DNA from: Candidatus Moraniibacteriota bacterium
Lineage (GTDB): Bacteria > Patescibacteriota > Minisyncoccia > Moranbacterales > UBA2206
Reading direction: 5' to 3'
Assembly (NCBI GenBank): GCA_003483065.1
Contig: DMWY01000008.1
Span: forward strand, 2,177 to 66,176
Length of the DNA: 64,000 nt
Numbering within the stretch: position 1 is the stretch's first letter; the number at the start of each line of letters is the position of its first letter. Below are positions 29,831-32,496 of the stretch, one piece after another. Below the pieces are notes generated by a model that saw only the letters and a list, made by a program, of their open reading frames with translations, did no database searches and was not told the origin of the DNA. The position numbers and the translations under genes were made by a program.

Positions 29831-30844
29831 TTAAAGAAGGCTGGGGTCGATTGCCCTGTTCGCAATGTCCGTCCTATTAAACAGGTTGGTACATCGGATC
29901 CTGCCAACAGCCCGATAGGCGTTATTTTTGGCATTAAGAGTATCAATGCCCAAAGCCGTCACACCCAAGACTCTTCCCCCATCCGTAATCAACTCACCGC
30001 TATCATCAAATTTGGTTCCGGCATGGAAAACGACGGTATTGATATTTTCTGTTCCATAGGTAATTGCGATAGGGAATCCTTTCGCATACTTATCCGGATA
30101 TCCCTTGGACGCCATAACCACGCACACCGCTGGTCGGGGATCCCATTTGATTTTTTGCTGATCAAGCGTTCCGTTAATGGCTGATTCAATGATTTCCATC
30201 AAATCGGTTTCCAACCGCATAACAATGGGTTGGATTTCCGGATCGCCAAACCTGGCATTGAATTCCAGGACGTACGGATCTCCTTTTTTGTCTATCATCA
30301 ACCCGACATAAATGACCCCGGCAGAGAGCATTGATTCTGCTCTTAATGCCTCAATCAACGGATTAATTATCCTTTCTGTGATTTTTTTCTCAACTTCAGT
30401 GGATATGATGGGTGCCGGTGAATAGGCACCCATTCCACCAGTGTTGGGTCCTTCATCCTTATCAAAAACTGCTTTATGATCCTGCGCTGTGGCCATAGGA
30501 AGGACGGAACCATTTTTATCAGTGATATAAATGCAGGACGCCTCTTCGCCAAAAATACAATTCTCCATGACGATTCGACTGGCGGCTTCTTCAAATTTAC
30601 CGCTGTCAATTACACCAAGGAAATCCTCCACTTCTTGACGATTTTTGCAAACCCGCACGCCTTTGCCAGCGGCTAGTCCGTCTACTTTCAGAACAATCGG
30701 GAAATAGTTATCTTCGAATTCATGGAAGTTCATGTTTTTGCGTATTTCGTCTGTACTGTCGAAAATAATAAATGGCGCAGTTGGGATGTCGTATCTTTCC
30801 ATTAATTCCTTGGCAAAGACCTTCGACCCCTCGAATTGAGCCAT
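29831..30844 (-). pseudogene. purD: Phosphoribosylamine-glycine ligase (purD) C-terminal fragment (ATP-grasp and C domains), separated from its N-terminal part by an IS insertion
   Basis: AQFEGSKVFAKELM aligns to the PurD segment following the N domain. GGMGAYSPAP and downstream PurD motifs are present. The N-terminal domain is encoded separately at 32083-32496. Confidence 0.8.
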
Positions 30845-32175
30845 CTAAAATGTAACTTTGCAAGGTATCAATATGCCATATAGAATGTGACTTTAGCTAA
30901 TTAACTAAAGTTGCAATATATGATGAGTAAAAAAGCGAGAATTGAGTATGTTAAAGAGTTGAAACCACGGTATTTAAAAGCCAATAAAGAAGAAAAGGGA
31001 CGAATGCTGGATGAGTTGGTAAGTTTCACAGCGTATAATGAAAAATATGCTATTAGGCTACTATCCGCTAAAACAGATTTATCTATGCGAGATAAAATTC
31101 CTAGAAAAGCTAGATCGGTGACTTATGATTCAGATGTCATCATTCCCTTAATTAAGATTTGGAAAATTCTGGATTATCCTTGCGGAGTTAGATTGCAACC
31201 ACACATAGAAGAAATGATTACAGTTCTAGAAAGATGTAATGAATTGAAATTAGATTTGAAAGTTAAAAAACAACTTAACAAAATTTCAGCTAGAACTATT
31301 GACCGCAGATTAAAAAGAGAACGAGAAATTCAAAGAGTGAAAAACAAGCGTGGATTTTGTACTACTAAGCCGGGAACCTTAAAATCTAAAATACCTATTA
31401 GAAAAGGTTGTGATTGGGATGAGAATATTCCCGGTTATCAAGAAATCGACACAGTAGCCCATAACGGTGGTGATCCATCCGGAGAATTCATCTATACGCT
31501 TAATTCCACAGATATTTATTCAGGTTGGAGTGAACAAGTAGCTGGTCTGGGTAAAAGTCAACACACAGTCATTGAAATTGGGTTTAAAGGCACAATTGCT
31601 CCGTCTCTGCCATTTGCTATACTAGGAGTAGATGGAGATTCAGGTTCGGAGATTATCAATACTCTGCTTTACAAATATTGTCAGAAAAATGATATTCAAT
31701 TTACTCGCTCTCGTCCGTATCATTCTAATGACGGTTGTCATATTGAAGAAAAGAATTGGACACACATCAGAAAGATTATTGGTTATGGTAGATTAGATAA
31801 ACCGGAATTAGTTATTACACTGAATGATTTATACAGAAATGAGTTTCGTTTGTATATGAATTTCTTTCAACCGCATATGAAATGTGTTTCCAAAGAATAC
31901 TTGGGCAGTAAGTGCAAAAAGAAATATATCACTAAAACTCCTTATCGCTGGCTGATGGATTCAGATAAGATTACAAAAACAAAAAAGAGAGAACTGACTG
32001 CACGGTATTTAACTCTCAACCCAGTGGAGTTAAAAAAGTCTATTGAAAAAAGTTTGAATATTATATCTAAATTATCTAAAAATTAATTGTGCGATTCTGG
32101 TTGATTACGGTTACATTTTAATTGGCATACTGATTTCTCTAGGGTTACATTATTATATGTCTTAATACGCCCCTC
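30829..32175 (+). mobile_element. Insertion sequence (about 1.35 kb) with a DDE transposase, inserted inside purD
   Basis: Imperfect terminal inverted repeats containing AATGTAAC near both ends (about 30845-30855 and 32110-32121). CCCCTC at both junctions (30823-30828 and 32173-32178) is a possible 6-bp target duplication. Exact boundaries are uncertain by about 20 bp. Confidence 0.55.
30911..32086 (+). CDS. DDE-type transposase (rve/integrase core superfamily)
   Basis: Catalytic triad candidates EIDTVAH ... [10 protein letters not shown] ... [16 protein letters not shown] (D-D-35-E with the conserved RPY / N-G-x-E-x-N pattern). Confidence 0.7.
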
Positions 32176-32496
32176 AAGTCTTGCCGCTTTCTTGTTCGGG
32201 CCGAAAATTTTCAAGCCCCTTCTTTCGAATTCATCGACGATCCCCATTGTCAACGGCTCCTCCGGGCCGACAATGGTCAGGTAGATCCCTTCTTTTTCAG
32301 CGAAATCCGCCAGCTTTTCAATTTCGTTGGCTTTGATGGGCACCAGCTCGGCGATACTGCCGATGCCGGCATTTCCTGGCGCGCAGTAGATTTTCCCCAC
32401 TCTCGGAGATTTTGCAAGTTTCCATGCCAGAGCATGCTCTCTTCCGCCACTGCCAATAAGTAGTACAGTTTTTTGATCCATGGCTACTCCCTTCAA
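32083..32496 (-). pseudogene. purD: purD N-terminal domain fragment; reading frame runs into IS sequence
   Basis: [17 protein letters not shown] PurD N-domain signature. After ...KKAARLEG the ORF continues through IS-derived sequence ([16 protein letters not shown]...). Confidence 0.8.

Follow-up and report, generated by a model that had tools for sequence, protein, structure and literature searches.

A split purD gene

The DNA analyzed here, hereafter the window, is a 64,000-nucleotide (nt) stretch of contig DMWY01000008.1 (assembly GCA_003483065.1, positions 2,177 to 66,176) from a Candidatus Moraniibacteriota bacterium, an uncultured groundwater member of the candidate phyla radiation (CPR). 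Its minus strand carries purD, the gene for glycinamide ribonucleotide (GAR) synthetase, which is cut by a 1338-bp insertion sequence (IS) into two open reading frames (ORFs), at 32083-32481 and 29831-30844. The upstream ORF, or 5′ fragment, encodes 132 residues. Its 104 native codons end in ...KKAARLEG and are followed by a tail (32083-32169) of 28 codons and a TAA stop (32083-32085), all of which are IS-encoded. The sole Pfam domain in it is GARS_N (E 2.4e-40, profile positions 2-100 of 100). The downstream ORF, or 3′ fragment, encodes 337 residues beginning MAQFEG-SKVFAKEL... and contains the ATP-grasp domain GARS_A (E 4.6e-59, profile positions 1-193 of 194) and GARS_C (E 1.1e-27). All three PurD domains are present, in order and with full profile coverage, spread over two ORFs, and the break falls exactly at the boundary between GARS_N and GARS_A. 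A continuous, single-gene PurD is not encoded, the frame being broken by the 1338 bp.

A preliminary description of this DNA had reported purD in two pieces around an opposite-strand transposase ORF, which is confirmed by the Pfam domains and by an insert with defined ends, now refined from about 1.35 kb to the 1338 bp at 30832-32169. The N-domain piece that it described is also real, but it is likely to start at the ATG at 32481 rather than at the TTG at 32496, which yields the 132-residue product found in public annotations. The claim that the pieces acquired their stop and start codons from the IS ends holds as well, since the 5′ piece reads through to the TAA of the IS and the 3′ piece starts at an ATG (30842-30844) within the left IS end. 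The first four codons plus one base of the 3′ fragment (ATGGCTCAATTCG) are the reverse complement of that end; five bases of duplicated target follow, and from SKVF onward the sequence is native purD. As described, CCCCTC occurs at both junctions (30827-30832 and 32170-32175), but only 5 bp of it, CCCCT, make up the true target duplication, at 30827-30831 on the left and 32170-32174 on the right. As for the sixth base, C, the IS begins with it on the left, and on the right it belongs to the native flank. We considered a degenerate 15-bp duplication (AARLEG/AQFEG) and rejected it, since the residues MAQF come from the conserved IS end, which other copies of the IS have as well. Similarly, the homology of the transposase, together with the inverted repeats and the duplicated target, excludes an intein, a group II intron and a programmed rearrangement.

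Anatomy of the insertion sequence

The IS (30832-32169, plus strand) belongs to the ISNCY family, ISLbi1 group, and is present once in the window. Its ends were set by alignment with copies in other contigs, one (L001, from Logan run SRR23882318) 93% identical at the nucleotide level and two (L002 and L003) 77% identical. Similarity among the copies begins at CGAATTGAG... (30832) and stops at ...CTTAATACG (32169), with unrelated flanks on either side, and two of these three contigs begin or end precisely at the terminal bases of the IS. A fourth other copy (L020), found by a metagenome scan, has a different left flank directly against the same CGAATTGAG and supports the left end only. Since copies with unrelated flanks share the same ends, the element measures 1338 bp.

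The terminal inverted repeats are imperfect and 25-26 nt long. The left one (30832-30856, plus strand) reads CGAATTGAGCCATCTAAAATGTAAC and holds the outward-facing ATG (30844-30842, minus strand) used by the 3′ fragment of purD; the reverse complement of the right one (32144-32169) reads CGTATTAAGACATATAATAATGTAAC. Each IS end also carries two copies of a 17-nt motif, GCCATMTARAATGTRAC, 34-35 nt apart from start to start. On the left, the outer copy lies at 30840-30856 and the inner copy at 30875-30891 (plus strand, 35 nt start to start), while on the right the outer copy lies at 32144-32161 and the inner copy at 32110-32126 (minus strand). These repeats are presumed to be transposase-binding sites, since paired repeats at each end are the usual look of such sites. 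An outward-facing ATG lies 13 nt from the tip at both ends (ATGGCTCAATTCG, 30832-30844, and ATGTCTTAATACG, 32157-32169). Both are kept in the 77%-identical copies and absent from ISLbi1, and the ATG is probably simply part of the inverted repeat.

Other copies of this IS, a point raised in the preliminary description, were not detected by self-BLAST within the 64-kb window, and the IS end used as an exact pattern had no match among GTDB species representatives, a collection that does not contain this genome.

The transposase and its family

The IS contains one ORF (30920-32086, plus strand) encoding 388 residues, a putative rve-like DDE enzyme with candidate catalytic residues D177, D240 (D238) and E276. 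Public calls of this gene start at ATGs, and the version with a TTG start has no exact match. On its own, the protein has no above-threshold match in Pfam or NCBIfam, rve scoring an E-value of 0.12, which is below the Pfam threshold. It is, however, 37.6% identical (99% coverage, E 9e-67) to the transposase of ISLbi1 from Leptospira biflexa plasmid p74, as determined by tblastn against RefSeq plasmids. The p74 coding sequence is annotated as “ISNCY-like element ISLbi1 family transposase,” and the further tblastn matches as “ISNCY family transposase.” On this homology, the window element can be classed as a new member of the ISLbi1 group.

Family-wide comparison brings out an rve signal. In an alignment of 20 sequences, D177, D238 and E276 are invariant and D240 nearly so, within the motifs D-x-G-S-E-F/I and V/I-E-x-K-N. 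The rve profile (PF00665) is matched by 13 of these 20 family members, with a best E-value of 4.5e-5, and a family profile searched against the Protein Data Bank gives a weak match, with motifs aligned, to the integrase core of prototype foamy virus (PFV; E 0.06). An AlphaFold2 model built from the 20 sequences is poor, with predicted local distance difference test (pLDDT) scores of 30-50 in the catalytic core. Foldseek with this model returned nothing below an E-value of 0.28, integrase and TnsB entries heading the insignificant list. The earlier label “DDE transposase” is therefore justified only through the ISLbi1 homology and the weak family-wide rve signal, and not by any Pfam or NCBIfam match of the protein itself. 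The transposase is probably active. More than 1800 homologs were found, almost none with a Pfam match and most on contigs of 1.3-1.6 kb, the size of the IS itself, as is typical of repeats at which assemblies break.

An empty site in a relative

Removal of 30832-32169 together with one CCCCT restores a 1308-nt open frame encoding a 435-residue PurD that reads ...AARLEGSKVF... across the former junction. Through proteins 90-100% identical to the neighboring UppP, we reached a contig from Logan run SRR33586837 (L015) with an uninterrupted purD (8825-10132). Its 435-residue product is 85% identical to the repaired PurD and aligns with it without gaps, and the repaired window DNA is collinear with L015 over the junction at the nucleotide level. 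The gene order in L015 is that of the window: uppP, purD on the opposite strand, genes for a histidine kinase and a response regulator, pilB and pilC. A more distant relative (L016, 66% identity) likewise has an intact purD (2484-3764) beside uppP. Both of these other members of the purD clade thus carry a fused gene, of 426-435 codons, while in another relative (L014) uppP is not accompanied by purD.

The cause proposed in the preliminary description, insertion of an IS, is hence borne out by the inverted repeats, the perfect target duplication, an intact ISLbi1-related transposase gene and the empty site in a relative. As to the intact second copy that it had named as a possible refutation, no intact version of this purD allele was found among ~15 billion proteins, where the best intact match is 85% identical. 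The cluster of the 3′-fragment protein at 90% identity has a single member.

The insertion across assemblies

The two fragment proteins have been deposited for Candidatus Moranbacteria bacterium GW2011_GWF2_36_839 and GWF1_36_78 (KKQ14207/KKQ14209 and KKQ17466/KKQ17468), and they also occur in two third-party metagenome-assembled genomes (MAGs). The exact 3′-fragment protein is encoded on at least 18 contigs, which stem from NCBI, from ENA (MEGAHIT-style) and, for several runs, from Logan assemblies. From five of these assemblies, ten loci were retrieved, and all of them match the window with 100% nucleotide identity over up to 21 kb, IS included. Logan contigs pass unbroken through both junctions. 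The agreement of different assemblers and the Logan contigs that cross both junctions suggest that the IS does not occur in very many copies in these samples and that an empty-site allele is not abundant there.

The preliminary description had named an assembly artefact, in this case an IS contig wrongly joined into purD, as an outcome that would overturn its reading. Apart from the general proneness of repeats to misassembly, nothing speaks for it. The same junctions are found in ten loci from differently built assemblies (IDBA-type at NCBI, MEGAHIT at ENA, and Logan assemblies of several runs), and a perfect 5-bp target duplication surrounds the insert. The chance that the join is spurious is negligible.

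Conservation of the interrupted gene

The repaired purD contains no frameshifts and no internal stops over its 1308 nt. Compared with L015, the ratio of nonsynonymous to synonymous substitution rates (dN/dS) is 0.145 for the whole gene, 0.10 for the N part and 0.156 for the C part; nine neighboring genes give 0.05-0.11. With L016 as the outgroup, 16 amino acid changes are specific to the window PurD and 22 to that of L015. Among the 152 columns that are strongly conserved in PurD (≥95% in 115 PurDs), the window protein keeps 140 and deviates at 12, as many as the L015 protein does. Judging from the lack of frameshifts, stops and excess substitutions, the interrupted gene has spent no appreciable period evolving as a pseudogene. 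This would leave two cases, a recent insertion or halves of purD that are both still constrained.

Expression signals of the two fragments

The native promoter and leader of purD (32482-32640, minus strand) are intact and comprise a TTGACT box, two predicted hairpins and a Shine-Dalgarno-like motif (GAAGGGAG). The first hairpin is formed by AAGGAG...TTCCTT. The second, at 32540-32521, is terminator-like, is followed by a U tract and ends ~30 nt before the start codon. This leader is identical to that of L015 at 151 of 159 positions (95%), compared with 82-88% identity in the flanking coding DNA. In the L016 leader, the promoter box and the first hairpin are preserved, along with a hairpin and U tract that differ in sequence. 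From this arrangement, the leader may be an attenuator. No riboswitch was detected in it with Rfam, and its folding energy is not unusual (z-score -1.4).

As for the 3′ fragment, no outward promoter above background was found at the left IS end. Shine-Dalgarno-like motifs precede only 4 of the 52 likely genes of the window, most starts having A/T-rich leaders. purD is among the few window genes with a clear motif of this kind (GAAGGGAG), which fits a foreign origin.

Origin of purD and its purine-pathway context

The composition of purD stands apart from that of its surroundings. Its GC content is 46.4%, and 48.6% at third codon positions (GC3), whereas the window has a GC content of 35.6% and the neighboring genes a GC3 of 32-38%; the L015 and L016 orthologs behave likewise. 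The purD clade consists of three sequences in 5.8 billion protein clusters, and the next matches, from Aquificota, Deltaproteobacteria and others, are ~55% identical. A scan of GTDB representatives for PurD gave matches of at most 52% identity and returned no CPR genome. This pattern suggests that purD was acquired horizontally long ago.

Even so, three lineages have retained the gene in its place next to uppP, with identities as low as 66%. Its retention at this site, the purifying selection acting on it and its 95%-conserved leader together speak for a gene that was evidently useful in the clade until recently. As for the remainder of the pathway, which the preliminary description had pointed to, no other pur gene was found in ~76 kb around purD, comprising the window, ~10 kb past one end and 2.3 kb past the other. 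The literature on purine metabolism in Moranbacteria yielded only general statements about CPR bacteria. Genes for de novo nucleotide synthesis are reported as generally lacking in Parcubacteria (PMC4508563), while a complete de novo route to inosine monophosphate (IMP) was reported in ~32% of 399 CPR MAGs (PMC11608272).

Other features of the window and its relatives

Two further differences set the window apart from the otherwise syntenic L015. A cytosine-5 DNA methyltransferase with an NgoFVII-like restriction enzyme (26843-28930) and a two-gene ABC transporter (20795-22352) are absent from the relative, and represent strain-specific insertions or deletions. A region rich in mobile-element or defense-type genes (~49000-58800), adjoining a tRNA-Glu gene (51008-51085), encodes two GIY-YIG proteins and KilA-N, NYN, DpnI-like endonuclease, KAP NTPase and Bro-N proteins. 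Just past the right end of the window, a 124-kb assembly (L102, 8916-9926) contains a gene, adjoining the last gene of the window, for an unrelated IS30-like transposase of 336 residues with HTH_38 and rve domains.

The window also contains, at ~12475-12632 on the plus strand, a noncoding element of ~155 nt that is 95% identical to positions 7118-7277 of L014, where other genes surround it. Found a single time in the window, the element is closed by a long stem (AGGACTTACGC / GCGTAAATCCT), folds with a z-score of -3.3 and is neither a tRNA nor a member of an Rfam family. It may represent either a small RNA or a miniature mobile element.

Discussion

The locus is most likely explained by a single copy of an ISLbi1-group IS that transposed into purD, an ordinary and recent knock-out. 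Transposition would have made a staggered 5-bp cut at CCCCT, within the codons for ...LEG|SK..., at the boundary between the N and ATP-grasp domains. The native promoter would now drive a transcript yielding only the 104-residue N domain with a junk tail of 28 residues. The ATP-grasp/C piece, which appears to have no promoter of its own, could be reached only by read-through, antisense across the 1.3-kb IS. The population would be left without GAR synthetase, living on salvaged purines or on whatever had already made purD dispensable, and the insertion would mark a stage in the continuing loss of genes from a small CPR genome.

Several observations weigh against this interpretation. The IS end provides the 3′ fragment with an in-frame ATG, and since Shine-Dalgarno-like motifs are so rare in this DNA, the missing motif is no argument against translation of that fragment. 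The lack of decay fits a working split gene as well as it fits a very recent insertion, and because the sampled copies are all identical, recent insertion and constrained halves are inseparable by sequence.

These points bear on the possibility that the IS caused a gene fission, with PurD working as two polypeptides, the N domain and the ATP-grasp/C piece, which would assemble non-covalently. The left IS end would supply the second start codon, and read-through from the purD promoter the transcript. Such a fission would account for a break precisely at a domain boundary and for two frames that are intact and free of excess substitutions. It would also draw on the ATG only 13 nt inside the IS end and on the AT-rich leaders without Shine-Dalgarno motifs that are the norm in this genome, and the insertion appears fixed in all sampled assemblies. 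We nevertheless consider it improbable. The split is confined to one clonal lineage, while the other two members of the clade, at 85% and 66% identity, have a fused gene; no outward promoter was detected from the IS end; the N fragment bears a foreign tail of 28 residues; and with ten loci 100% identical, no selection is measurable after the split. As for the start codon, an in-frame ATG is expected by chance in one case out of three, and since the ISLbi1 end lacks it, it is not a family feature. More doubtful still is a viable two-gene PurD in which the end ATG of this IS subfamily acts as a portable start codon, allowing insertions at domain boundaries to be tolerated. If true, IS-driven gene fission would here be seen at work in a minimal genome. 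Recent inactivation of purD is favored as the best reading because the split is limited to a single clonal lineage, no promoter was detected for the downstream piece, the in-frame ATG can be ascribed to chance and the N fragment has a foreign tail.

A different question is what the inactivation says about purine metabolism. Were purD already dispensable or of no use, having come by horizontal transfer and standing alone with the other pathway genes missing, its interruption would be neutral and uninformative in this respect. This is suggested by its foreign composition (GC 46% versus 36%), by relatives outside the three-member clade that are at most 55% identical, by the absence of any other pur gene in the ~76 kb around it and by the close relative L014, which has no purD by uppP, as well as by the reported general absence of genes for making nucleotides de novo in Parcubacteria (PMC4508563). 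However, the gene was kept next to uppP in three lineages to 66% identity, with a pairwise dN/dS of 0.145 and a strongly conserved 5′ leader, and one survey found the complete de novo IMP route encoded in about a third of its CPR genomes (PMC11608272). On balance, we regard prior dispensability as unlikely.

Taken at face value, recent inactivation of purD would be one dated step of gene loss in an uncultured groundwater CPR bacterium (Moranbacteria), for which one can see both the ancestral condition, in the form of an intact syntenic ortholog, and the agent, in the form of an intact IS. The insertion hints that this population can live without GAR synthetase, and the interrupted purD is a clean marker allele by which the Moranbacteria population of the Rifle groundwater can be followed. 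The ISLbi1 group, for its part, gains a large and almost unannotated family of metagenomic transposases (>1800 proteins) with ends that are now defined. The interruption itself is an ordinary finding, an accessory biosynthetic gene hit by an IS that is new but falls into a known group, and it would become more interesting only if both PurD pieces proved functional.

Comparison with known systems

Like the window element, ISLbi1 of Leptospira biflexa has one transposase ORF, a 5-bp target duplication and, at its termini, long imperfect inverted repeats, within each of which a motif recurs. The two elements also end in similar bases (...TTAATACG in the window versus ...TTCAATACG in ISLbi1), and in the locus examined (L019), ISLbi1 has AGAAG (5 bp) on both sides. 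A 5-bp duplication is the one given for the ISLbi1 group in ISfinder. Elements of the group measure ~1.4-1.5 kb, so the window element, at 1338 bp, is slightly below this range. It is shorter than ISLbi1 itself (1338 versus ~1523 bp, with the ISLbi1 ends as read in L019, and 388 versus 443 residues for the transposase). It differs further in its CPR host, in belonging to a large and mostly unannotated metagenomic subfamily, and in the outward ATGs at its ends, which ISLbi1 lacks. The rve DD35E transposases of IS481 and IS3 share with the window family the D...D(36)E spacing and both conserved motifs. The matches of this family to PF00665 and the PFV integrase core are weak, and the window protein by itself stays below the Pfam threshold.

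The interrupted purD resembles the IS-made pseudogenes of host-dependent or reduced-genome bacteria, where, as here, a biosynthetic gene is cut by an intact IS with a clean duplication and without further decay. IS expansions are known, for example, from Leptospira borgpetersenii and Shigella. Unlike in such expansions, the IS found here is single in 64 kb and is crossed by assemblies, which suggests a low copy number. ATP-grasp enzymes can also be naturally split, the large subunit of carbamoyl-phosphate synthetase being encoded by two genes in some archaea and Aquificae. In these enzymes, as in the window purD, the break lies between structural domains. However, natural splits are conserved across lineages and have expression signals of their own, whereas the split in the window is confined to one clonal population and still holds the mobile element.

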